Position numbers and translations under genes: made by a program. The notes under the pieces are model-generated. The model had not been told where the DNA came from, searched no databases, and saw nothing but the letters and a program-made list of their open reading frames with translations. From the sequence record OZ346221.1: 45,229 nt of DNA, one strand, 5' to 3'. Below are positions 4,453-44,678 of this stretch, one piece after another (the first letter of the stretch is position 1; each line of letters starts with the position of its first letter). Source of the stretch: a phage.

Positions 4453-5217
4453 TTAGCGCGGAATACCGCAAATCTCGTTGAGAGTTTTCACATCCAGCGC
4501 CACCGCCGTGGACTTCGGCTTGTCCGGGTAAGGGATGAATTGCTCAACTTCAGGCCATGCCTTAATCAGCTTCTTGTCAGTATTGTGCAGGTCCAGAACA
4601 CCGGTAACGGTTAGTTTGAACGCATCATACTTCGCGCGCAACTCGCTACGGGCCTTGTCGTTGCGGTCCAAGCGTTTACAGAAGTCATGGTCTGCCGGGT
4701 AATCTACGCGACCGCGAGGGAGATATATCGGCAGCGCATTCCCGTCCTCGTCCACTTCACACACCGACGCGAGCATAACTGTCTCGAACCCCGGAACGAT
4801 ATCGCCGAGATCAGGCGCAAGCTTATTCATATATTTCTCTTCCCAGTATCCGCGATGTACGCGGTATTGGCGACCGTCACCGCTCAATGACAAGGTGCGA
4901 ACATTGCCGCCTGCGTTGATTTCAAAGGTGGCGTTATAGACGCTGCCGATACCCTTCGGGCGGTCGGAGTTATAACTATACGTCGCCTTGTTGGTGTATA
5001 CGCTGACGCCGTACATCTGCGACTGGTCGTCGCGGATTTCCTTGATATGCTCGCGGAGCGCTGCGAATGTGCGAATGCCGTCCGGCATACAGTCCAGCGT
5101 GATTGCGTACGCCAGATCGCGAGAGTCCATCATGATTTGTTTGGCTTCGGTTGCGATTTCGTGGTCGCGCAGGATGTTAGCCAGAATCTGGTTTTTAATG
5201 TCTTTCGTCAGTCTCAT
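4453..5217 (-). CDS. hypothetical protein, reverse-oriented accessory gene inside the head module
   Basis: 254 aa from internal ATG (MRLTKDIKNQ...) with RBS GAGGA; long N-terminal extension in the ORF track judged spurious; no recognisable motif. Confidence 0.6.
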   Translation of the reverse strand: MRLTKDIKNQILANILRDHEIATEAKQIMMDSRDLAYAITLDCMPDGIRTFAALREHIKEIRDDQSQMYGVSVYTNKATYSYNSDRPKGIGSVYNATFEINAGGNVRTLSLSGDGRQYRVHRGYWEEKYMNKLAPDLGDIVPGFETVMLASVCEVDEDGNALPIYLPRGRVDYPADHDFCKRLDRNDKARSELRAKYDAFKLTVTGVLDLHNTDKKLIKAWPEVEQFIPYPDKPKSTAVALDVKTLNEICGIPR

Positions 5218-5224
5218 TAGTGTG

Positions 5225-5262
5225 TCCTCGTTGTTGGTGTGCAACCAATATATGCAACCAAT
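5225..5262 (-). promoter_or_regulatory. sigma70-like promoter for the 4453..5217 gene, with tandem TGCAACCAAT motifs
   Basis: On the - strand: TTGCAA, 17-nt spacer, TATATT, then leader ATTGGTTGCACACCAAC...GAGGA; leader nearly identical to the one upstream of 40493 (approximate coordinates). Confidence 0.45.
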
Positions 5263-5365
5263 ATGAGGATTGCAAGCGAATTTTGCGATTATTTTTATCG
5301 CTGATAATATTAGAAGCGTGAAGTCGAGCGGGTGGCCTGCTCTGCCACAATCCCAGGGGGATAGC

Positions 5366-10810: not shown

Positions 10811-10964
10811 GCGGGACAGATCGGGACGTCCCGTTTTGTCCCACCCCTGAAATGTGCATACCTATTCGAATTTATTGCATAAACTAAGCGGGACAGATCG
10901 GGACGTCCCGTTTTGTCCCACCCCTGAAATGTGCATACCTATTCGAATTTATTGCATAAACTAA
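10811..10964. repeat. 77-bp direct tandem repeat (2 units) containing the palindrome GGGACGTCCC
   Basis: Two adjacent near-identical units beginning GCGGGACAGATCGGGACGTCCCGTTTTGTCCC and ending TTATTGCATAAACTAA. Confidence 0.8.
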
Positions 10965-11121
10965 GCGGGACAAAAAGCGGGACAAACAAGGGGCGGGACA
11001 AAGCGGGACAGCACCCCGTCCCCACCAGTGCTGCCGCGGGGTTTAGCCGATCGGGACAGCGGGACAGCACCCCAGTCTTTCAGACTAGACGGGGGTCAGT
11101 GGCCCCCCTCGTCTGAGACTG
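10958..11121. repeat. iteron element copy A (six GCGGGACA-type direct repeats plus a GC-rich hairpin)
   Basis: CTAAGCGGGACAAAAAGCGGGACAAACAAGGGGCGGGACAAAGCGGGACAGCACC...CGGGACAGCGGGACAGCACCCCAG...GACGGGGGTCAGTGGCCCCCCTCGTC; flanks identical to the copy at 40113..40276. Confidence 0.75.
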
Positions 11122-21270: not shown

Positions 21271-21350
21271 GGTATCATCCCCTATATTTGGTTGAGTTTT
21301 AGTATTACACCGCTCAACCTGGATTGCAACCAATTTACGAGGATTTAGCT

Positions 21351-24022: not shown

Positions 24023-24085
24023 TATGTGGTCCTTTTTATGGGAGGCCGTATTGCCCCCCGACGCGTTAACTATAATGCAACCAAC

Positions 24086-24556
24086 CTATTGGTTGCAAGT
24101 GAATTTTGCAACGTTTATTGCGTAAATTTTCGGGACCAAATCGCCGCACGCCCGACGAATTGCCGCGATGTTCTTCTCGCAGTCCTCAATGATGACAAGT
24201 TCAGACACGTCTGCATAGCAGACCATTTTGAACACAGCGCACGCCTTAAACTCTGGCGGCGGGGTGTCGTCCAGCATGTGGCGCATAAACAACCGGCCTG
24301 CCGGGAATACCTCCAGTTGCTCGGCGGTAGTCTCCCAGCATTCTAGCTGCCGGTTGGTCAGATACGCGATCTCGAAGCCTTGCTCTTTGTACATGCGCAA
24401 CAGCGGCAGCATATCCATGTTCAGGTCTTCGCGTACATGCGCTTTGTGCCACTTTGCCCAAAAGGTTGATTTCGTTTTTATCCCCGGCACCAGGTCGGCA
24501 CGCGCATCGCTTGAACCATTAATAACGCCATCCAAATCGCAAATCAGTAATTTCAT
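24086..24556 (-). CDS. HAD-superfamily hydrolase-like protein
   Basis: 156 aa beginning MKLLICDLDGVI, matching HAD motif I (DxDGV). Confidence 0.55.
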   Translation of the reverse strand: MKLLICDLDGVINGSSDARADLVPGIKTKSTFWAKWHKAHVREDLNMDMLPLLRMYKEQGFEIAYLTNRQLECWETTAEQLEVFPAGRLFMRHMLDDTPPPEFKACAVFKMVCYADVSELVIIEDCEKNIAAIRRACGDLVPKIYAINVAKFTCNQ

Positions 24557-25937: not shown

Positions 25938-25974
25938 CGCACTGTCTCCAGTTATTAAAAAGGGCGTCCAACCG

Positions 25975-26012
25975 GACACCCTCAATATAATGCAACCAAT
26001 ATGGTTATGCAA
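25975..26012 (-). promoter_or_regulatory. sigma70-like promoter with TGCAACCAAT motifs, for the 25686..25937 gene
   Basis: On the - strand: TTGCAT, 17-nt spacer, TATATT, followed by a hairpin plus T-run in the leader (approximate coordinates). Confidence 0.35.
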
Positions 26013-26017
26013 CCAAT

Positions 26018-26341
26018 TTACGAATAAAAATTCGGATCGCGTGCAACGTCTACCAGATACAGATTGCTGATTCGGTTGCCGTAGTGCCCTGGTGTGCGCT
26101 GGCGACACACTACGGCGAAGCCCGGGGGGATTGTATTGCCCGTCTCAATAATCCACGCCACGCGCGCGCCCGACAGCGTCTTACCATTGCATTCGATACG
26201 GGTGCCTCCATCGGCAGTATTGATGTTGCCAATTTTGCAGCCGGTGGACTTCAGACGAATGACGCCGGTTTTGCTGTCGTAGGAGAATAACTGGTTAGTC
26301 ATTGCAACCGAAAAATCGATGGCTTCGAATGTAGTGTTCAT
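26018..26341 (-). CDS. HNH_3/NUMOD4-like protein with degenerate catalytic motif
   Basis: 107 aa; NUMOD4-like N-terminus (FSYDSKTGVIRLKS) and HNH_3-like layout (ARVAWIIETG...IPPGF...GNRISNLYLV), but with CR in place of the expected DH catalytic pair. Confidence 0.4.
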   Translation of the reverse strand: MNTTFEAIDFSVAMTNQLFSYDSKTGVIRLKSTGCKIGNINTADGGTRIECNGKTLSGARVAWIIETGNTIPPGFAVVCRQRTPGHYGNRISNLYLVDVARDPNFYS

Positions 26342-26977
26342 TCTAAATTTTCCTCATTGACTGCTATCGCGAAGCCGCGCGGGGTGAGCGACCGGATTAA
26401 TTTTGTGCGGGCTGATTTGCCTCCGAGGCGACTATACTGCTTCGAGTACCCTTTTTCAACGAATACAGGCTTTTTCTCAGGCATACGGAAGCCGTTGCCG
26501 GTCCATAAGCAGGTCAGCTTCGGATATGAATCGCGGGCGTTGATGTATTCCGGGAAGAGCGGGTGTACGTCATCCTCCGGCAGATATCCCCCATACTCCC
26601 ACGGATCAAACGAGTGGTCCGGCTTACGCCACTGGGTGGAAAGCACACTGCGCGGATTCTCAATCATATATGGCACTTCGAAGAAGTCACCCAGGTAAGC
26701 TGCGATCTTCGCGGTGCGCACCGCTCACAGCTAGATCCGTGCACGGAGGGAATGCATAGATGATATCTGGCGTACCGAAATCGCCATTCATCGCGCGGTC
26801 CACGAAGTCCAGATCGATAAACTCATTGCGATACCGGATTCCGCGACCATAAATACGGTAGTCAAGGTACGACCCGTGATCGGCTTCGGAGTAGTTGAAG
26901 CAATAACACTTATGCCCCATCTCGGCAGCACGCTCAATCATCAAGCCGCTGCCGTCAAACAATGACCAGATTATCAT
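26338..26977 (-). pseudogene. cytosine-5 methyltransferase-like gene interrupted by a +1 frame change (covers ORFs 26687..26977 and 26338..26721)
   Basis: N-terminal ORF has motif I (SLFDGSG) and motif IV (FPPCTDLAVSGA); reading on in the +1 frame from its stop gives DFFEVPYMIENPRSVL (ENV-like motif VI) and a C-terminal RSLTPRGFAIAV; 640 nt is not a multiple of 3; GGG run (plus-strand CCC 26690-26692) abuts the stop. Confidence 0.45.
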
Positions 26978-28398
26978 TTGCGCGCCTTTTTAGCTTTCAT
27001 GTATTCCATTAAATCGTCCTGGATATCGCGCTTACTGTCGCGACGCTCGGCGACAAGTTCATCCAGTGTTCCGCGCGCCTGGATAATGTATACGAATACC
27101 GGTCTAGGGTGTCCGGCCTGCATCTGTCGAACCGGCCCGATACGCTCCACGATCTGCGAAAAGTGCTCAAAGTTCCAGGTATCGGAGAAGATTGCCAGGT
27201 GGTGTCCGCCGTCCTGCAAGTTAAGGCCGTGGCCTGCGGATGCCGGGTGTGCAAACATGATGGGGATCTCGCCCCTGTTCCACGCTTCCATATCCTTATT
27301 CCCCTGCTTACCCTTACCCAGCGCTACGCCGTGCGGAAATTTCTTCTTGAGACGCGCCAGATCATGCTTGTACTGATACGCAACGAGCAACGGCGCGCCG
27401 TTCAACTCCTCCACGATACTTTCCAGCGCGTCCAGTTTGGCGTCGTGAATCTTCACCCACTCGTCGGTCCGTTCGCCGTCTTCGTCCACCTTATACACAG
27501 CGCCGGAAGCAAGCTGAAGGCACTTAATTGTCTTCGATGCCGCGTTCGCCGCTTCCACTGTTCCGCTTTCCAGTTCGGCAAATAGCTCGCTTTCAAACTG
27601 GTCGTAAATCTTGCGGGCTTTCTTCGGCAGGTCCACAACAACCGGCGTATAGATTGGCTTGTCGCACCCGAAGTATTCAGCAGCGTCAACGGTTAGTGAT
27701 ACGTCAGACAGGCGTTGTTGTATTTCTTTCTCGGAGTTCTTTAGCGGAGCGTGCTGCATCGTGAAGCTGCCAGGCTTAACAGGCTTGCTAATGAACCAGC
27801 GATCGGTAAATGCCTTATAACTACTGCCGAGTCGTTCGCCACCGTCGACAAACCACGTCTGACCCCATAAGTCTTTCAAGCCGTTTGGCGCTGGTGTGCC
27901 GGTCAGATTAATCCAGCGCTTGACGTGTTTATGTGCAATCGCTGCCAGTGCGCGTGCGCGCTTACTGCCTTGCTTGCTACGATAGCCTTTCAGCTTAGTC
28001 GATTCATCGGCAACAACGACCGTAAAGGGCCACGCATCGCCGTAATAGTCAACCAGCCACTCAACCACATCGTAGTTAACACAAACCACGTTAGCGTCGC
28101 TCTCAAGCGCGGCAATACGGTCCTTCTCCGGTCCGGTGCCGTCTACGACCAGCAGGGATGAGAACCGCCATTTCTCCTGTTCCGGGGGCCATGTACCTGA
28201 CGCAACACGCAGCGGGGCCAGCACCAGTACGCGGTCCTCATGATGGGACAGGACGCCAGTCTGGAACATTTTATTCAGCGCCCACATTGTCGCGCCGGTT
28301 TTCCCGGATCCCATTGTCGCCCAGATATTACATCGCTTATGCTTGAGGATGAACGCGGTAATCAACTTCTGATATTCGCGACGTCGGAATCGTGCCAT
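26974..28398 (-). CDS. SNF2-family helicase-like protein
   Basis: 474 aa from internal ATG (MARFRRREYQ...); Walker A MGSGKTGAT, DEAH-like VVADEST, and LTGTPAPNGLKDLW typical of SNF2 helicases. Confidence 0.75.
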   Translation of the reverse strand: MARFRRREYQKLITAFILKHKRCNIWATMGSGKTGATMWALNKMFQTGVLSHHEDRVLVLAPLRVASGTWPPEQEKWRFSSLLVVDGTGPEKDRIAALESDANVVCVNYDVVEWLVDYYGDAWPFTVVVADESTKLKGYRSKQGSKRARALAAIAHKHVKRWINLTGTPAPNGLKDLWGQTWFVDGGERLGSSYKAFTDRWFISKPVKPGSFTMQHAPLKNSEKEIQQRLSDVSLTVDAAEYFGCDKPIYTPVVVDLPKKARKIYDQFESELFAELESGTVEAANAASKTIKCLQLASGAVYKVDEDGERTDEWVKIHDAKLDALESIVEELNGAPLLVAYQYKHDLARLKKKFPHGVALGKGKQGNKDMEAWNRGEIPIMFAHPASAGHGLNLQDGGHHLAIFSDTWNFEHFSQIVERIGPVRQMQAGHPRPVFVYIIQARGTLDELVAERRDSKRDIQDDLMEYMKAKKARK

Positions 28399-28838: not shown

Positions 28839-28878
28839 CTCTAAAATCCTCGATATGGCTAACCGGCACACTATACCG

Positions 28879-29157
28879 CTATGCGACCAATTCAGCAACC
28901 AACAAATCACAGTCGGCGATGTTGTCTATAACGCGAACGTCCGCGCCGCGGCGGGCCATCCTCTCATGTTCACGTACCTGGTGCGGCTTCGGTTTTCCGC
29001 CTGGGCGCTTCACTTCGACGAATACTATGCGGCCGTTGATGATGATAATCAGGTCGGGCGCGCCTGCGCGCCCCTCCCATGCCACTTTGCGGCAGAATCC
29101 ACCAACTGCTTTAACCAGCTTCATCAGGTGACTTTGAACCTTGCCTTCTGGTGTCAT
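28879..29157 (-). CDS. VRR-NUC domain nuclease
   Basis: 92 aa with GAPDLIIIINGRIVFVEVKRPGGKPKPHQ, matching the VRR-NUC PD-(D/E)xK core. Confidence 0.65.
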   Translation of the reverse strand: MTPEGKVQSHLMKLVKAVGGFCRKVAWEGRAGAPDLIIIINGRIVFVEVKRPGGKPKPHQVREHERMARRGADVRVIDNIADCDLLVAELVA

Positions 29158-32787: not shown

Positions 32788-32876
32788 TTTCCAATTCCTC
32801 ATTTCACATGTATCGGGGTTATTGGAAGCCACCCCGTCCGGCTTGGTTGCTAATCTACTTGGTTGTGCCTAAGCGG

Positions 32877-33119
32877 TCAAGCATTTTCATTAAAAAGATT
32901 TCTGGTAACGTAGTTGGTCGCGTTCTCGATCCAGCTTAACGGCGGGCGGTTAATGTTCTTCGCCACCCAATCGACGGCAGCTTCGCTATAGCCGTCATCA
33001 AGCCATTGGGTTGGATGGCGAATCATCCAGGCCACCATTAACACGCCTTGCACGCAATGCAGGAGAAAGCCCAGCGCGCCGAGCAAAAACATCAATAAGA
33101 TTGCGAATACTTTATTCAT
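32877..33119 (-). CDS. small membrane protein
   Basis: 80 aa with N-terminal hydrophobic helix VFAILLMFLLGALGFLL. Confidence 0.45.
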   Translation of the reverse strand: MNKVFAILLMFLLGALGFLLHCVQGVLMVAWMIRHPTQWLDDGYSEAAVDWVAKNINRPPLSWIENATNYVTRNLFNENA

Positions 33120-35527: not shown

Positions 35528-35723
35528 GGTATATCTCCGATTGGTTAAGTTTAGGTGTCGGCAGTTAACTTCGTCGGTGGCCTTAACATATTGCCCGGTT
35601 GCGCGTTCTCCCGTTCGGGTAGTGGACCGGGTTATATAATCACGGTTGGGAATCCTGACACTTCGATCCGGCCCCTGCGTTGCCCCTCTCCAGTTTGCGT
35701 CCTGCATCCTGTCGACGGGGGGA

Positions 35724-35753
35724 ATAATAGATTGGTTGCAGGATAGGTGTCAA
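35724..35753 (-). promoter_or_regulatory. leftward early promoter candidate
   Basis: On the - strand: TTGACA, 18-nt spacer containing TGCAACCAAT, TATTAT; about 190-nt leader to the 35527 start (approximate coordinates). Confidence 0.45.
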
Positions 35754-35868: not shown

Positions 35869-35897
35869 TTGACACCCCGCGGTTTTAGGTGTAGTTT
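35869..35897 (+). promoter_or_regulatory. rightward early promoter candidate
   Basis: TTGACA, 17-nt spacer, TAGTTT, then GGAG RBS before the 35929 ATG; inverted GGTGTCAAC / GTTGACACC copies flank the hub (approximate coordinates). Confidence 0.45.
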
Positions 35898-35928
35898 CGT
35901 TGGTCATTAACCAACCGGAGACAGAAAA

Positions 35929-36258
35929 ATGAATATTGACGACGCAATCGAAATGTTAACTAAGACTGTTTGCAGTGAGACAAGCCGGTCCTGGGCATAT
36001 ACCGATGCCGTGGGTGCGGTGCTATTTGAGATCGAACGTCTGCGACTTACCGAAAAAGAATTGCGCGCGAAGCTGGAATTACTCAACGGTACGGCAGCAA
36101 GCAAGCTGCAAAAGCACAATGAGGAAATGGAAGAATACAAAAAACAGGTTATCCGTTTGCGCGATGAGGGGAAGTCATGGGCAATGATCGCGGAGTTGAC
36201 AGGAATTAACCAAAGCACCGTGCGCTCTTGGGTACGCAATAACAAAACTTCGAAGTAA
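35929..36258 (+). CDS. HTH DNA-binding protein, putative early regulator
   Basis: 109 aa; coiled-coil middle and C-terminal helix-turn-helix-like GKSWAMIAELTGINQSTVRSWV. Confidence 0.5.
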   Translation: MNIDDAIEMLTKTVCSETSRSWAYTDAVGAVLFEIERLRLTEKELRAKLELLNGTAASKLQKHNEEMEEYKKQVIRLRDEGKSWAMIAELTGINQSTVRSWVRNNKTSK

Positions 36259-36268
36259 GGCAACGGCA

Positions 36269-38533
36269 ATGAGCTTAATTAAATTCGCTGTAACAAGACC
36301 CGCTAAAAAAGGCGAAAAAGCCAGGGCGGAAAACTTCCAGATGACAACTGATGAATTTTTCGAATTTATCAATGATGCGAAAGAAATATCATCAGTGCAT
36401 ATCAACAAGACCGAGGATAAAGCCGAGTATGCGCGCCGCAAGCGCAAGGCCGATGGCATCGTGGCATATACCAGTGACGGCCTACGCCGTAAGACCAGCG
36501 CGGTGGACCGCTCGATCCTGTTCTTTGATATCGACCGTACCGACACTCGCACCTTGCGCCGCTGCCGTAAGGCTTTCATCGATGCGGGGCTGGAGCACGT
36601 ATTCCATACAACAACCGGCGACCGCCACCCGCTGAAAGGCGGCACGCGTTGCGCACGTTTCCTTGTGCTCACAGACAAGCCCGTACCGGCGGAAGACCTG
36701 GGCCGCGTCCAGTACGCGCTGTTAGACCAACTGGGCCTGTCTGATGTGGACTTCGACGATTGCACCAAAGACACAAACCGCCTGATGTACCTACCACACC
36801 AGCAGTCTGTCATTAAGTGCCACTACGGAAAGCGCGCCAGTGTGCGTCGTCTGCTTCGCCGGGCTGACAGGCTGGGAGTGGAGAAAGAGGAAGTACGCCG
36901 CGAGCTTACCCAGGGCGACGACGCAGTGGCTGACGGCATTCTGGACTGGTGCTTCCAAGCAGGATTCGAGGAGTTATCCTCCGGTCGCGGTTATGAAGTG
37001 CCGTGCCCGAACGAACATCTGCACAGCGGCGAAGGGTCGACGGCTATTATAGTCAAGGATGGCGAGATCCGTTTCAAGTGTATGCACACCGGCAACGAGT
37101 GTTGCTCTGAGCTGAACAGACACCAGCACCTGGCGCTACGTCTTATCGGGATACCGGACCACCTGAACGTCGAGCCGCACAACATGTCACGTAAGCAAAT
37201 CGCCGCCATCCTCCCAGGGCTGGACGACGAGGAAGTCGAATCCTTATATGAACATATTGTTGATGCGGTTGGCGACGGCGAAGAATACGGCGTGTGCACC
37301 GATGCGGATCTGGATAACGAGCCGGTTGCGCTGTTCAGTAAGCACGACCCGATTATCGAGGGGTTGATTAACTTTAAATCGACCTGGTACATGGCGGGTG
37401 AGTCGAATATCGGTAAGTCTTTCTACGTGCTGGGCCAGATGGGCGCGGTTGCCGCGGGTATTCCGTTTGGTGGCGCGAAGGTCGTCCAGTCTCATTGCTT
37501 CTATTTCGACGCGGAAGGTGGCGAAGCCTCCAACCAGCGTAAAGAAGCATTGCAGATTAAATATGAGCACGACCTGGACAAGCTGCACATTATCGATCTG
37601 CAGTCACGCGGCTGGGATATCACCAGCAAATCGGGCTTGCGCGAAGTTATCAGCTTTATCAACCGCACCGCTAACGGCGAACCGGTTGGCCTGGTGGCGT
37701 TCGACTCACTAAACCAGACTGTTGCGTTGCGGTCCGCCGAGGCTAAACCGTTCGACGAGAACAACGCCAGCGATATGGGTGAAGTGGTCAAAGCGCTGAA
37801 GGCCATCGCGGAAAATACAGGTGGCAGTGCGGGCGTCATCCACCACCCGGCTAAAGGTGCAAACGGCAGCAGAACGCCACGCGGGTCCGGCGCGCTGCAT
37901 GGTGCTGTCGATTCTGCGTTCTTCCTGGAACAGCCGGACGACAACCAGCCCGGACAATTGAACCTGTATCACGAAAAGTCACGTAACGGCATCAAGCAAG
38001 CGCCGCGCGGCTTCGTCCTGCTCAAGTGCAAGGTGAAGGTGGATCTCCGCAAGTCAGAAGCGTTCGAGGCGCACCAGTCCACCAGCACCGGGCCAGACTT
38101 CGGCGACGTGGTTGCCGGATGGGACGTCAAGCCGATTGCCTCCACGCCACGCGACGAGACTCTCTACCTCGTACCGGTTGCCCTGGCACCGTTCGCTATT
38201 GAACAGGCGAAGGCGGCGGGCAAGGCCGCGGTTAAGGAAGAGAACACCGCCGGACCGCGCAACGAAAAAGAGAAAGTGCTTTATGCGGCACTGGAAAAAC
38301 TGATGGAAGATAACCCGTACCATACTGGATTCAGTAAATCGGCAATTGTCCGCCAGGCGGGACTCGCAAAAGGTGGCACTTCGACGAAGGCAATCGACGA
38401 TATGGTGGAGCGCGGGGTAATAGGTTTTTATACAGATCCGCACACCGGGGCCATCTATGGGTCTTCTAATTTGGTCATCAAATCGGATATCCCTATCACG
38501 CTTTCCGCGACCGATGACGATTTAAAAGATTAA
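36269..38533 (+). CDS. primase-helicase (zinc-binding primase-type N-terminal region, RecA-like ATPase, C-terminal winged-helix-like domain)
   Basis: 754 aa; Cys/His cluster CPNEHLHSGEG...CMHTGNECC; Walker A MAGESNIGKS; VAFDSLNQ; C-terminal GFSKSAIVRQAGL...AIDDMVERGVIGF. Confidence 0.75.
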   Translation: MSLIKFAVTRPAKKGEKARAENFQMTTDEFFEFINDAKEISSVHINKTEDKAEYARRKRKADGIVAYTSDGLRRKTSAVDRSILFFDIDRTDTRTLRRCRKAFIDAGLEHVFHTTTGDRHPLKGGTRCARFLVLTDKPVPAEDLGRVQYALLDQLGLSDVDFDDCTKDTNRLMYLPHQQSVIKCHYGKRASVRRLLRRADRLGVEKEEVRRELTQGDDAVADGILDWCFQAGFEELSSGRGYEVPCPNEHLHSGEGSTAIIVKDGEIRFKCMHTGNECCSELNRHQHLALRLIGIPDHLNVEPHNMSRKQIAAILPGLDDEEVESLYEHIVDAVGDGEEYGVCTDADLDNEPVALFSKHDPIIEGLINFKSTWYMAGESNIGKSFYVLGQMGAVAAGIPFGGAKVVQSHCFYFDAEGGEASNQRKEALQIKYEHDLDKLHIIDLQSRGWDITSKSGLREVISFINRTANGEPVGLVAFDSLNQTVALRSAEAKPFDENNASDMGEVVKALKAIAENTGGSAGVIHHPAKGANGSRTPRGSGALHGAVDSAFFLEQPDDNQPGQLNLYHEKSRNGIKQAPRGFVLLKCKVKVDLRKSEAFEAHQSTSTGPDFGDVVAGWDVKPIASTPRDETLYLVPVALAPFAIEQAKAAGKAAVKEENTAGPRNEKEKVLYAALEKLMEDNPYHTGFSKSAIVRQAGLAKGGTSTKAIDDMVERGVIGFYTDPHTGAIYGSSNLVIKSDIPITLSATDDDLKD

Positions 38534-38708
38534 ATTCTGCGCGCATTGGTTGCCGATATGGTAATTCCCATATCGGTGAATGATTAAATTTTGCGCGCAT
38601 TGGTTGCCATTTTGAGTGTTTTTACCTGGTCGTATTGGTTGCCGTGTAGTGTAAATATAGTGAATAGTTATGCAATAAAACTGCATAAAGTAAGCGGACA
38701 GAAAGCAC
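37229..38708 (+). repeat. tandem duplication unit, copy 1 (3' half of primase-helicase gene plus downstream non-coding DNA)
   Basis: Near-identical to 38709..40188 with scattered substitutions; unit about 1480 bp; junction next to GTAAGCGGACAGAAAGC (approximate coordinates). Confidence 0.8.
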
Positions 38709-40188
38709 GAGGAAGTCGAATCCTTATATGAACATATTGTTGATGCGGTTGGCGACGGCGAAGAATACGGCGTGTGCACCGATGCGGATCTGGATAACGA
38801 GCCGGTTGCGCTGTTCAGTAAGCACGACCCGATCATCGAGGGGTTGATTAACTTTAAATCGACCTGGTACATGGCGGGTGAGTCGAACATCGGTAAATCG
38901 TTCTACGTGCTGGGGCAGATGGGTGCGGTTGCCGCGGGTATCCCGTTTGGCGGTGCGAAGGTCGTCCAGTCCCATTGCTTCTATTTCGACGCGGAAGGTG
39001 GCGAAGCCTCCAACCAGCGTAAGGAAGCATTGCAGATCAAATACGAGCACGACCTGGACAAGCTGCACATTATTGACCTGCAATCACGCGGCTGGGATAT
39101 CACCAGCAAGTCGGGCTTGCGCGAAGTTATCAGCTTTATCAACCGCACCGCTAACGGCGAACCGGTTGGCCTGGTGGCGTTCGACTCACTCAACCAGACT
39201 GTTGCGCTGCGGTCCGCCGATGCTAAACCGTTCGACGAGAACAACGCCAGCGATATGGGCGAAGTGGTCAAGGCGCTGAAGGCCATTGCGGAAAATACAG
39301 GCGGCAGTGCGGGCGTCATCCACCACCCGGCTAAAGGTGCAAACGGCAGCAGAACGCCTCGCGGGTCCGGCGCGCTTCATGGTGCTGTCGATTCCGCGTT
39401 CTTCCTGGAACAACCGGACGACAACCAGCCCGGACAATTGAACCTGTATCACGAAAAGGCGCGTAACGGCATCAAGCAAGCGCCGCGCGGATTCGTCCTG
39501 CTTAAGTGCAAAGTTAAGGTAGATCTCCGCAAGTCCGAAGCGTTCGAAGCCCACCAGTCCACCAGCGCCGGGCCAGACTTCGGCGATGTGGTTGCCGGTT
39601 GGGACGTCAAGCCGATCGCATCCACGCCACGCGACGAGACTCTTTACCTCGTACCGGTCGCCCTGGCACCGTTCGCCATCGAACAGGCGAAGGCCGCTGG
39701 CAAAGCCGCAGTTAAGGAAGAAAACGCCGCCGTACCGCGCAACGAAAAAGAGAAAGTGCTTTATGCGGCACTGGAAAAACTGATGGAAGATAACCCGGAC
39801 CATACCGGATTCAGTAAATCGGCAATTGTCCGCCAGGCTGGGCTTGCGAAAGGTGGCACATCGACGAAGGCAATCGACGATATGGTCGAGCGCGGCGTGC
39901 TCGGTTTTTATACCGATCCGCACACCGGGGCCATCTACGGGTCGTCGAATATTGTCATTAAAACGAGTATACCCATCACGCTTTCTGCGACCGATGATGA
40001 TTTAAAAGATTAAATGTTGCGCGCATTGGTTGCCATTTCGAGTGTTTTTAGCTGGTCGCATTGGTTGCCGTGTAGTGTAAATATATTGAATAGTTATGCA
40101 ATAAAACTGCATAAACTAAGCGGGACAAAAAGCGGGACAAACAAGGGGCGGGACAAAGCGGGACAGCACCCCGTCCCGCCCCCGGATG
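38709..40188 (+). repeat. tandem duplication unit, copy 2
   Basis: Second copy of the 3' half of the primase-helicase gene, followed by the complete iteron element (approximate coordinates). Confidence 0.8.
38772..40013 (+). CDS. stand-alone paralogue of the primase-helicase C-terminal half (ATPase plus winged-helix-like domain)
   Basis: 413-aa ORF with GTG start and no obvious RBS; about ten amino-acid differences from the parent, most nucleotide differences synonymous; may be an untranslated remnant. Confidence 0.45.
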   Translation: MCTDADLDNEPVALFSKHDPIIEGLINFKSTWYMAGESNIGKSFYVLGQMGAVAAGIPFGGAKVVQSHCFYFDAEGGEASNQRKEALQIKYEHDLDKLHIIDLQSRGWDITSKSGLREVISFINRTANGEPVGLVAFDSLNQTVALRSADAKPFDENNASDMGEVVKALKAIAENTGGSAGVIHHPAKGANGSRTPRGSGALHGAVDSAFFLEQPDDNQPGQLNLYHEKARNGIKQAPRGFVLLKCKVKVDLRKSEAFEAHQSTSAGPDFGDVVAGWDVKPIASTPRDETLYLVPVALAPFAIEQAKAAGKAAVKEENAAVPRNEKEKVLYAALEKLMEDNPDHTGFSKSAIVRQAGLAKGGTSTKAIDDMVERGVLGFYTDPHTGAIYGSSNIVIKTSIPITLSATDDDLKD

Positions 40189-40276
40189 ACGCGGCCTGGC
40201 GGGGAGCGGGACAGCGGGACAGCACCCCAGTCTTTCAGACTAGACGGGGGTCAGTGGCCCCCCTCGTCTGAGACTG
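40113..40276. repeat. iteron element copy B (candidate replication origin)
   Basis: Six GCGGGACA-type repeats plus the same GC-rich hairpin as copy A; directly downstream of the primase-helicase region; followed by an AT-rich stretch with TGCGGNTTG repeats. Confidence 0.75.
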
Positions 40277-40435
40277 CATAAAATCCTGGATTGCAAAATA
40301 CACGGCAGCATGTTGCGGATTGCGGTCGTCGCGGAACTAGGCAACCAATGCGGGTTGTATTATGTTGAGTGAAAAATGCGGTTTGCAGTCTCAGCAGATA
40401 GCGATCAACTTTTTCATGCGCGTGATTAATATTGG

Positions 40436-40464
40436 TTGCATCCGGCCTGGCACCTTGCTATATT
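40436..40464 (+). promoter_or_regulatory. sigma70-like promoter with ATTGGTTGCA motifs, for the 40493 gene
   Basis: TTGCAT, 17-nt spacer, TATATT, then leader GGTTGCACACCAACATGAGGA before the ATG (approximate coordinates). Confidence 0.45.
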
Positions 40465-40492
40465 GGTTGCACACCAACATGAGGACTGAACA

Positions 40493-40798
40493 ATGAAAGC
40501 AATTATCTGGAATTACACCCTGGCCGTGGCAAAGCTGGAAGAAGCGAAAGCACTGAACGGCAACGTAGACCAGGCGCTGCAGATTGCGGTACTGGCGCAC
40601 CAATCAATTCGTGACGCGCTCTACCGCATGGACGCCAGCCTGGATGACCTGAAGCCGTTGCGTATGGCAATTCACGAATATGCCAAGGCATTTGCCCGTG
40701 AGCGCCTGGCGTATCGCTTCGGGATCGGTGAGACGGCAGTGACAAACGTCGCCCGGATTAAAGCCCAGCGCGAACTATTCGCCCAGCTTGCGAAATAA
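40493..40798 (+). CDS. hypothetical protein
   Basis: 101 aa with GAGGA RBS and the conserved promoter/leader element upstream. Confidence 0.5.
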   Translation: MKAIIWNYTLAVAKLEEAKALNGNVDQALQIAVLAHQSIRDALYRMDASLDDLKPLRMAIHEYAKAFARERLAYRFGIGETAVTNVARIKAQRELFAQLAK

Positions 40799-40807
40799 GG
40801 GGCCAAA

Positions 40808-41077
40808 ATGAGCCGTAGGCGCGCCAAACAGCTTTCGTGGCATATTCCCCTGCATTGCATACGAATATGGGCTGAGAATGCGGTTGAGGGTGAATCTGTA
40901 TTCTGGTGCTATCGCGACGACGTAAAGCCGTTGACGCAGACTCGCTACTTGCACCAGTTCGCAGCACAACACGATTTCAGGGTGCGGACCTCCTTGCAAC
41001 CAATGGGGATCCGTATTACATTACGCCGGAAGCCCGCCGTTGAGCGGGTAGGCAAACACTGGAGACTGAGCAAATGA
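40808..41077 (+). CDS. hypothetical protein
   Basis: 89 aa ORF closely following the previous gene. Confidence 0.45.
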   Translation: MSRRRAKQLSWHIPLHCIRIWAENAVEGESVFWCYRDDVKPLTQTRYLHQFAAQHDFRVRTSLQPMGIRITLRRKPAVERVGKHWRLSK

Positions 41078-43203: not shown

Positions 43204-43233
43204 TTGACTTGCAACCAACATAGACGCCATACT
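43204..43233 (+). promoter_or_regulatory. promoter candidate with TGCAACCAA motif in the spacer
   Basis: TTGACT, 18-nt spacer beginning TGCAACCAAC, CATACT, then AAGAGGAG RBS (approximate coordinates). Confidence 0.4.
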
Positions 43234-43263
43234 GCGACCAATCAACAAGAGGAGTATTACACT

Positions 43264-43405: not shown

Positions 43406-44548
43406 ATGCACCCGCAAACTAAAATCACCGACGAGCAATTGATTGCTGAATTACAATCCGGCGCTACATCGAAAGAGATTTCTAAGAAGTACGGCCTTTC
43501 CCTCCGAAATGTCTACATGCGCAAAGCCCGCCTGTCGAAGAAAGGTATTGGTCATGGTAACGATGATGTAATCCGTAAGCGCGTTGCCGATGGCTTTGGT
43601 GTTAAGCGCGTATCCGCCCTGGTACGCGGCAATGGCGAAGAGGTCATGTCGTGGGTTATCACTGAGCAGGACAAGGAGCGCCAGCTTGAAGCAATGCGCG
43701 CCGTTGTCGAGGGTATGAACAGCGAGATCACACCGGCAGCACCAGTAAGCGCCCCACCAGTCCCGATCCAGGCACTTGACCTACTCAACCTGTACACCGT
43801 GTCCGACTTCCACCTGGGCATGTTGGCCTGGGGCGAGGAGACTGGCGAGGACTGGGATATGGCGATCGCCGAAGACCTGTTTTACCGCTGGTTTGTCGAA
43901 GCCTTCGCACGCGCACCGGACGCAGGCACTGCCGTGATTAATATCCTCGGTGATATGGCGCACTTTGATAGCCTCGATGCCGTCACTCCTGCCAGTGGTC
44001 ACATACTGGACGCAGATACCCGATACCAGAAGTTGGTCCGCTACATGATTCGCATGGTGCGTAACGTGGTAGACCTGGCGCTGCAAAAACACCACAAAGT
44101 CAAACTGCTAATCGTCCAGGGGAATCATGACGAGTCGGGTATGATTTGGCTGGCTGAGATGTTCAATACTCTGTACGAGAACGAGCCGCGCGTCGATGTG
44201 GATACGTCCCCTGACGTCTACAAAATGGTGCAGCACGGCAAGACCACGCTATTCTTCCACCACGGGCACAAAGCGCGATTCGATGCGATCGAGCAGGTTA
44301 TGATTTCTAAATTCAGACAGGCTTTCGGGTCCAGTGAGTACAGCTACGCGCACGTAGGCCACTTGCACCACCAGAAGATTGTAGAATCCCGCAACATGAT
44401 TGTTGAACAGCACCGGACACTCGCAGCGAAAGACGCATACGCAAGCCGCGGCGGTTGGATGTCCGGCCGCAGTGCCAACGTCATCACCTACAGCGCCAAT
44501 TACGGCGAAGTAGCGCGCTTAACCATTAGCCCGGAAATGTTGAAGTAA
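43406..44548 (+). CDS. metallophosphoesterase with N-terminal HTH-like domain
   Basis: 380 aa; calcineurin-like motifs DFHLG, GDMAHFD, GNHDE, HHGH, GHLHH; N-terminal ATSKEISKKYGLSLRNVYMRKARL resembles an HTH. Confidence 0.6.
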   Translation: MHPQTKITDEQLIAELQSGATSKEISKKYGLSLRNVYMRKARLSKKGIGHGNDDVIRKRVADGFGVKRVSALVRGNGEEVMSWVITEQDKERQLEAMRAVVEGMNSEITPAAPVSAPPVPIQALDLLNLYTVSDFHLGMLAWGEETGEDWDMAIAEDLFYRWFVEAFARAPDAGTAVINILGDMAHFDSLDAVTPASGHILDADTRYQKLVRYMIRMVRNVVDLALQKHHKVKLLIVQGNHDESGMIWLAEMFNTLYENEPRVDVDTSPDVYKMVQHGKTTLFFHHGHKARFDAIEQVMISKFRQAFGSSEYSYAHVGHLHHQKIVESRNMIVEQHRTLAAKDAYASRGGWMSGRSANVITYSANYGEVARLTISPEMLK

Positions 44549-44564
44549 CGGCAACCCGTACCCC

Positions 44565-44594
44565 TCCCAGCCTGCCGATTTGGTGGGCTTTTTT
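44565..44594 (+). terminator. weak hairpin plus T-run upstream of terS
   Basis: Imperfect GC-rich stem around GCCTGCCGATTTGGTGGGC followed by TTTTTTG (approximate coordinates). Confidence 0.3.
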
Positions 44595-44678
44595 GTGCCT
44601 GTTATAATCCCCGTTAGATGGCAGGGCCGTCTCCTATGTTGCCGATGGTCGGCGCATATGAACAAAAGGGCTTATATC

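Follow-up and report, generated by a model that had tools for sequence, protein, structure and literature searches.

The Cro/CI system of phage lambda rests on a small helix-turn-helix (HTH) protein encoded by the first gene of an early operon at divergent promoters, and on multiple short sites lying over the -35 hexamer, the spacer and the -10 hexamer, one of them at the promoter of the regulator itself; the lambda site is a 17-bp pseudo-palindrome and the sites form two operator clusters. In phage T4, the phage-specific MotA box replaces the -35 hexamer of several promoters that keep a host-type -10, is spread before many early and middle genes and is fixed in position (approximately -30) and orientation. 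The p4 protein of phi29 and the Mor and C proteins of Mu combine a small helical dimerisation region with a C-terminal HTH and act at dyads in defined upstream positions, by which one protein could repress early and activate later promoters. Iteron plasmids carry direct repeats at the origin and an inverted repeat at the promoter of the gene for the winged-helix Rep protein. This text describes a short box with the core TTGGTTGC and its candidate regulator, gp35929, in sequence record OZ346221.1. The window, the whole stretch of 45,229 nucleotides that was analysed, is a complete 45.2-kb genome of a Dhillonvirus, an HK578-like virulent siphophage of E. coli.

As in lambda, a small HTH protein is encoded by the first gene of an early operon at divergent promoters: the gene of gp35929 (35929..36258, plus strand; 109 amino acids) is the first of the rightward operon and immediately precedes that of the primase-helicase. 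Boxes likewise cover -35, spacer and -10 positions, with a putative operator at the regulator's own promoter in the window, and the analogy is supported by outgroup phages in which an XRE/Cro-type protein occupies the same slot. Unlike in the lambda system, the HTH does not reach the threshold for the XRE/HTH_3 type, ten bases without symmetry make up the box, and sites occur in at least 10 regions of a virulent phage. The replacement of the -35 by a short box in several promoters with a host-type -10, and the spread of boxes before many early and middle genes, recall MotA, but here both position and orientation vary and no MotA or AsiA homologues were present among the proteins scanned. A small helical region followed by a C-terminal HTH is reminiscent of phi29 p4 and Mu Mor/C, with which gp35929 has neither a sequence nor a significant fold match. 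Direct box repeats beside iterons, close to a replication gene, are shared with iteron plasmids, as is the inverted partial dyad at the regulator's promoter; in contrast, most boxes lie at unrelated promoters, and gp35929 is a protein of 109 residues with a single HTH. Literature searches on Dhillonvirus, HK578, SECphi18, SSL-2009a and SO-1 gave no description of the box and none of a Dhillonvirus transcription programme; searches with the box sequence returned only primer noise. The GenBank annotations comprise three consensus promoters in HK578 and two repeat regions in SO-1.

The original prediction had claimed a recurrent motif at promoter-proximal sites, and this was borne out by comparison with shuffled sequence. 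The window contains 12 exact copies of TGCAACCAA against 0.51 ± 0.69 expected from dinucleotide-preserving shuffles, and none of 100 shuffles reached 12; with one mismatch allowed, 27 matches were found against 12.6 expected. The distribution is non-random by an unbiased k-mer count also, in which ATTGGTTGC was the commonest 9-mer of the whole genome (16 copies) and ATTGGTTGCA the commonest 10-mer (10 copies). The core TTGGTTGC is present in 22 exact copies, of which 17 fall within the 7.3% of the genome that is non-coding (binomial P = 9e-16) and a further two touch a stop codon; a coding copy lies at 40995. Several coordinates given originally were displaced by 8-25 nt, such that the palindrome lies at 24076-24097 and not at 24068-24090, and the site before the tail-fibre gene at 21325-21333 and not at 21301-21325. 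The copies at 38546, 38600, 38635, 40026, 40061 and 40340 exist but read GGCAACCAA(T). Overlooked were 28882-28902 (two boxes), 32843, 32859, 43233, the coding copy and the TTGGT-N5-ACCAA dyad at 35900-35914.

A position table built from 20 non-coding sites yielded a compact, asymmetric box of ten bases, A-TTGGTTGC-A. Information content collapses on both flanks, and a symmetric partner at constant spacing is lacking. Two flavours can be distinguished: a promoter flavour, (t)aTA-TTGGTTGC-A(t), and a second, CGCA-TTGGTTGC-C, that sits downstream of the primase-helicase gene. A full inverted pair of boxes occurs only at 24076-24097. Partial dyads of the form TTGGT-N5-ACCAA occur exactly three times in the genome (5234, 35900 and 40463), with half-sites 10 bp, or one helical turn, apart; each directly follows a -10 hexamer, and one belongs to P_R, the promoter of the regulator's own operon. 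Paired boxes are spaced by 12, 13, 17, 23 or 31 bp in varying orientation. The motif had originally been termed a dyad; the term holds for the one full inverted pair and the three partial dyads, whereas the box itself is an asymmetric 10-mer. The simple dimeric regulator that this symmetry had suggested consequently applies to a minority of sites only. A scan of IMG/VR for TTGGTTGC-N3-10-TTGGTTGC pairs gave, among the densest loci inspected, mostly collagen-like GNQ coding repeats (GGCAACCAA), the rest being chance-like single matches. It is almost certain that the box is a cis-element, and likely that it is a site bound by a regulator.

All promoters referred to here are predictions from the sigma70 consensus. 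Nine of them carry boxes that overlap the -35, the spacer or the -10/+1 region, and the boxes, approximately 20 in number and mostly paired, are distributed over 10-11 intergenic control regions. The boxes fall into three position classes, at approximately -39..-32 (the -35), -22..-15 (the spacer next to the -10) and -8..+3 (the -10/+1), in both orientations. Position and orientation relative to the -10 were not constant, as they would be in a fixed promoter element such as the MotA box; the three classes and both orientations therefore fit operators on core promoter DNA. A phage-specific promoter consensus, one of two explanations offered originally, is not supported as a fixed element for the same reason. 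The other, an operator family, accords with the variable placement on core promoters, with the conservation islands and persistence in relatives described below, and with the co-occurrence of box and gp35929.

The comparison with related phages that had been proposed as a check showed the box to be conserved. SECphi18, Oekolampad, ZCEC10 and approximately 160 other records are 92-94% identical to the window over long stretches, and five complete Dhillonvirus genomes each contain 19-21 cores. In a footprint made by seeded local alignment of unique orthologous sequences at 22 Dhillonvirus loci, box columns were 99.1% identical against 86.2% for the 30-nt flanks. The islands of conservation are the boxes, around which spacers, -10 hexamers and Shine-Dalgarno regions drift. 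The boxes were also retained in L024 and L026, two distant metagenomic relatives found via the HTH protein, whose primase-helicases are 66-68% identical to that of the window; L024 has 9 boxes in 6.1 kb and L026 has 10 in 10.7 kb. Their architectural positions are those of the window, while flanks and downstream genes differ, and the L024 genes between primase-helicase and holin gave no tblastn match in the window. In both relatives the spacer of P_L, the promoter of the leftward DNA-metabolism operon, holds two tandem boxes (TTGACG-CAACCAACGCAACCAAT-TAACCT or TAGTAT), a single (T/C)GCAACCAA(T/C) box located 8-9 nt after the -10 of P_R replaces the dyad, the primase-helicase gene is again followed by boxes, and pairs of boxes form TTGCAA-17-TATTAT or TATAGT promoters before small genes. 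Two weaker relatives of the HTH protein (L022 and L023, 30-32% identity) lie on AT-rich, unrelated contigs with no boxes and were not used.

Outgroups with a syntenic early region were Hafnia phage TS33 (no boxes), Enterobacter phage phiEap-2 (one, coding) and the complete Salmonella virus VSiP (none); the primase-helicases of TS33 and phiEap-2 are 43-44% identical to that of the window. In all three, the first gene before the primase-helicase gene encodes a protein of 71-73 amino acids that was read as Cro/XRE-type by sequence motif. A gp35929-type HTH protein, on the other hand, was present in every box-bearing genome or locus examined. Among those window proteins that were compared with four relatives by tblastn, gp35929 was the only one whose presence tracks the box; PolI, SSB, the PD-(D/E)XK nuclease, the primase-helicase, hyp47 and hyp48 are conserved in TS33 and phiEap-2 and thus do not track it. 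This co-occurrence supports the HTH protein at 35929 as a candidate binder, as had been suggested.

HTH_23, Sigma70_r4_2 and HTH_28 matched gp35929 above Pfam cut-offs, while HTH_3 scored 16.4 bits against a cut-off of 23, which places the protein outside the XRE/Cro-CI family by this measure. An AlphaFold2 model (predicted local distance difference test score 85.6) consists of a short helix, a 55-residue helix (25-79) and a C-terminal HTH (84-108), the long helix probably forming a dimerising coiled coil. The HTH matches and the modelled helix and HTH point to a phage-encoded, sequence-specific DNA-binding protein. The family is narrow, with 24 clusters, and its C-terminal 60 or so amino acids are nearly invariant even where the N-terminal 45 are hypervariable and cannot be aligned, the pattern expected of a domain that recognises about 20 dispersed sites. 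When alleles and boxes were compared for covariation, the recognition helix was conserved in all HTH alleles and the box was unchanged. A Pfam scan of approximately 30 phage proteins gave no second HTH above threshold.

A second HTH protein, at 43406, had also been named as a candidate binder, and this suggestion was not upheld. The product of 43406-44548 is a metallophosphoesterase fused to a weak N-terminal HTH (residues ~8-48; GerE, 19.4 bits, below cut-off), of a family named 'DNA repair exonuclease' in PHROGs and found in more than 2000 phage records. VSiP has a copy that is 74% identical, with the HTH conserved, and zero boxes in 43 kb; the 43406 protein is therefore an unlikely binder. 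The fusion of HTH and nuclease is conserved across T1-like, Jersey-like, Klebsiella and Vibrio siphophages.

On balance, sequence comparison inclines somewhat towards A-TTGGTTGC-A being the recognition box of a phage regulator, most probably gp35929, that represses early and middle promoters. This supposes binding of gp35929 to the box, actual activity of the predicted promoters and a repressive effect. P_R, the rightward early promoter, would direct synthesis of gp35929 as the product of the first gene transcribed. As the protein accumulated it would occupy boxes and occlude host RNA polymerase. It would turn down the leftward DNA-metabolism operon, at P_L and the internal promoters, as well as several accessory-gene promoters, and would feed back on P_R via the dyad or box at +1, limiting its own synthesis. 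The promoter of the packaging and structural operon, an extended -10 that carries no box, would escape. In concept this is a standard repressor-operator arrangement and the surprise is moderate.

P_R is formed by TTGACA (35869-35874), a 17-nt spacer and TAGTTT (35892-35897), on the plus strand. Its dyad, GTTGGTcattaACCAAC (TTGGT-N5-ACCAA; 35900-35914), begins two bases after the -10, over the start-site region, and is a putative autoregulatory operator; it is conserved in 15 unique orthologues, among which the spacer and Shine-Dalgarno region vary. On the minus strand, P_L (35724..35753) comprises TTGACA, an 18-nt spacer and TATTAT, with 11 of 12 consensus matches. The box inside its spacer (35732-35739) is invariant across the genus, while the remainder of the spacer and the -10 vary.

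Several observations weigh against repression by gp35929. The P_R dyad is absent in HK578 and CHD5UKE2, which keep all other boxes. An asymmetric box with varying spacing and orientation is awkward for a rigid dimer. Comparison of gp35929 with solved structures, by fold and by sequence, gave only generic HTH matches (E > 0.7) or coiled-coil noise, and another binder is possible, many small phage proteins having no recognisable fold. Taken as a whole, the scan that predicted the promoters from the consensus showed no enrichment over shuffles. The phyletic comparison rests on partial sequence for L024, L026, TS33 and phiEap-2. Where a box provides the -35, always in one register, its role could be activating or dual, and a link to replication initiation is hinted at by the three boxes that adjoin the GCGGGACA iterons close to the primase-helicase gene.

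These last two points lead to alternative roles for the same boxes. As positive promoter elements, they would be bound at TTGGTTGCA, replacing or overlapping the -35, by a phage factor, possibly gp35929 with its HTH resembling sigma70 region 4, and the polymerase of the host would be recruited or re-targeted to middle promoters, in the manner of class II activation or of sigma appropriation of the MotA type; in a mixed form boxes at -35 would activate while those in the spacer or at +1 would repress. At least five promoters across the window, L024 and L026 do use the box as a non-consensus -35 (TTGCAT, TTGCAA or TTGCTG), the register being the same each time, with 17 nt to a hexamer resembling the -10, and the gp35929 HTH weakly matches Sigma70_r4_2 and ECF-sigma models. 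However, the constant register follows in part from picking TTGCAx as the -35, and the box also lies within the spacer of promoters close to consensus (P_L), 3' of the -10 and in both orientations. There were no matches to the MotA, AsiA or Mor families among the proteins scanned, and a positive element is accordingly a possible but doubtful explanation. A variant in which gp35929 is a bifunctional, sigma-region-4-like factor, repressing at spacer and +1 boxes (P_L and P_R), recruiting polymerase at surrogate -35 boxes and coupling the switch to origin firing through the iteron boxes, is rather unlikely; if true, a single protein would run the temporal programme of a virulent siphophage, and the hypervariable N-terminus of this factor might have been shaped by host defence sensing. 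The boxes might instead serve primarily in replication or DNA organisation, gp35929 being an origin-binding helper of the primase-helicase; the CGCA/CGTA boxes by the GCGGGACA iterons would then be the main targets and the promoter boxes secondary and autoregulatory, as with iteron-plasmid Rep. The gp35929 gene directly precedes the primase-helicase gene and three boxes (five with a duplication described below) directly follow the latter, beside iterons and inverted repeats, an arrangement kept in L024 and L026; the SO-1 record annotates a repeat region here, with a note that begins 'possible ...' and is cut off, and an inverted dyad at the regulator's own promoter accompanies direct repeats at a putative origin. 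Against this, about 14 of 20 boxes are dispersed over at least nine promoter regions across 38 kb, and the origin-side boxes are spaced irregularly (54 and 35 bp) and not clustered and regular as in an iteron origin. Repeat region A (10811-11066) moreover has iterons and no boxes. The GCGGGACA repeats fit the origin class better, and a primary role in replication appears distinctly improbable.

Two further explanations dispense with a dedicated phage regulator or with DNA binding altogether. The boxes could be bound by an exploited host transcription factor, or act as RNA in the form of a leader hairpin or processing site. The half-site ATTGGT resembles GntR/PdhR-type half-sites, yet the TTGGT-N3-ACCAA dyad of such host operators never occurs in the window, only N5 (three times) and an inverted N4 (once), and syntenic enterobacterial outgroup phages are without the box. 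Folded as RNA, the pair at 24076-24097 can reach -11.8 kcal/mol and the P_R dyad -10.4 kcal/mol. Most boxes are nevertheless non-palindromic, the fold of the leader at 40455-40492 was no better than those of shuffles and Rfam gave no match, while the 24076-24097 hairpin lacks the U-tract of a terminator. Many are not transcribed in one common sense, given that boxes occur in either orientation and ahead of the -10. Action through a host factor or as RNA is thus very improbable. Hardly more credible would be that the boxes are by-products of a mobile promoter cassette, recombination joints for the exchange of accessory genes with no dedicated binder. The same promoter and leader do stand before unrelated genes in this genome, and the cargo differs in SO-1 and L024. 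Such a cassette leaves unexplained the isolated boxes in the P_L spacer, the origin-side boxes and a 99% conservation confined to 8-10 bp, and it is compatible with operators bound by a regulator, as a side effect of them.

The promoter and leader in question were found twice, as had been stated, before 4453..5217 (minus strand) and before 40493 (plus strand), with 20 consecutive identical bases, TATATTGGTTGCACACCAAC, followed by GAGGAC. The first serves the Nmad5 gene (4453-5217) and has the form TTGCAA-17-TATATT (5240..5275, minus strand). One box (5254-5261) lies in the spacer, abutting the -10, and another (5241-5248) lies over the -10 and start site, forming TTGGT-N5-ACCAA (5234-5248). 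In SO-1 the Nmad5-type promoter and leader are kept upstream of a non-homologous gene. The second promoter, of hyp53 (40493-40798), extends over 40432..40477 on the plus strand; here a box (40432-40439) gives the -35 TTGCAT, 17 nt separate this from TATATT (40459-40464), and the second box (40463-40470) again covers the -10 and start site with TTGGT-N5-ACCAA. The leftward island between the lysis and structural genes (4453-5275, minus strand), which encodes the Nmad5-domain protein in the window, is a variable cargo slot. Its counterpart in SO-1 (L004, 5082-5600) contains a different gene, annotated as RusA-like or as 'Pol III beta, possible moron', and in the window, SO-1 and CHD5UKE2 the same boxed promoter and leader drives the slot every time.

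Three of the minus-strand promoters use a box as the -35. That of hyp29 (DUF6378; 24069..24098), TTGCAA-18-TATAGT, contains the inverted pair TGCAACCAA-cctA-TTGGTTGCA (24076-24097), in which one box is the -35 and the other lies in the spacer. It is followed by a conserved hairpin in the 5' leader (24035-24060, minus strand; -14.4 kcal/mol), the stem of which differs between relatives with pairing apparently kept. The hyp34 promoter (25984..26016) carries direct repeats 17 bp apart, one box (26009-26016) serving as the -35 TTGCAT and the other (25992-25999) abutting the -10 TATATT. Immediately 3' of this -10 is a terminator-like hairpin (25960-25990, minus strand; -17.7 kcal/mol and U5). The start site would fall inside the 5' arm of the hairpin, which may be a terminator that stops read-through and is bypassed by the internal promoter. 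The hyp39 promoter (28870..28902), which overlaps the 3' end of the VRR-NUC gene, has a box (28895-28902) as the -35 TTGCTG, a -10 TATAGT and, in the spacer, a variant box, TTGGTCGC (28883-28890).

In the SSB gene promoter (32843..32880, minus strand; TTGACC-17-TAGATT) a box lies just after the -10 (32843-32850), and a one-mismatch box in the spacer (32859-32866) is exact in relatives. On the plus strand, the promoter before a small open reading frame (ORF) and the metallophosphoesterase gene (43204..43241; TTGACT-18-CATACT) has a box abutting the -35 (43211-43218) and a variant, GCGACCAA, at -10/+1 (43234-43241) that reads GCAACCAA in relatives. The lateral tail fibre gene is preceded by a single box (21326..21333, minus strand), 17 nt upstream of the start codon in a probable 5' leader, with a degenerate TATAT-TTGGTTGA nearby (21283-21295). 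A strong minus-strand promoter, TTGAAA-17-(TG)AATAAT (35855-35765), has a GC hairpin with a run of nine T (T9) some 45 nt further on, and could yield a transcript of approximately 60 nt, a small RNA, or the 36-amino acid ORF annotated in Oekolampad; the unit contains TTGGTTAGC, a one-insertion variant of the box, and had no match in Rfam.

Boxes of the second class (CGCA/CGTA-TTGGTTGC-C) are found at 38546, 38600 and 38635 (38546..38642, plus strand), just after the primase-helicase gene and beside the putative origin repeats. They are conserved in the genus, and the area is marked as repeat region B in the SO-1 record. Two more (40026..40068, plus strand) are copies of those at 38600 and 38635; the boxes at 40026 and 40061 exist only because 38707-40123 duplicates 37227-38706. 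An inverted box of this class (40341..40348, minus strand) lies between the GCGGGACA iterons and the hyp53 promoter. The duplication, in tandem, measures 1.48 kb and has diverged, the copies being 94-97% identical; of the primase-helicase, the second copy retains just the C-terminal helicase half (38772-40013, 413 amino acids). Oekolampad is without the duplication, and the record of phiEco273 is one other that annotates two helicase-primase genes. The GCGGGACA iterons number seven in region A (10811-11066) and six in region B (40120-40221), next to GC-rich hairpins and a TTATGCA...TGCATAA inverted repeat, and both regions are annotated as repeat regions in the SO-1 record. Iterons are present in L024, and there are none in the 10.7 kb read of L026. 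The iteron element is likely to be related to the origin or to packaging and to be distinct from the box.

Gene annotation was carried over from phage Oekolampad by tblastn. The rightward block runs on the plus strand from 35929 through terS (44679) and across the window end to terL (1) and the tail genes (~22900), and the leftward DNA-metabolism block from 35907 down to 22946 on the minus strand. No lysogeny module was identified by annotation transfer and family scans. Upstream of terS, a terminator hairpin is followed by the box-free extended -10 promoter TGTTATAAT (~44598-44608, within 44569-44608), which is the likely promoter of the packaging and structural operon. A Dcm-like C5-cytosine methyltransferase (26341-26983, minus strand) is split over two frames near 26717-26730, where the window matches the Oekolampad protein in one frame over residues 4-92 and in another over residues 107-236; either the gene is a pseudogene with a frameshift or the sequence contains an error. 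Within the 5' end of hyp48, 52 bp (35640-35691) are 92% identical to T1-like phages (JK16, JLBYU07 and others) that are otherwise unrelated at the DNA level.

Dhillonviruses, including SECphi18, HK578 and BASEL isolates, are common test phages in work on anti-phage defence. The box and a single candidate regulator allow the early and middle regulon to be mapped in a directly testable way, and would explain why one promoter-leader cassette is common to unrelated accessory genes. They may also offer an engineering handle, through controllable phage promoters and the knock-down of early genes.

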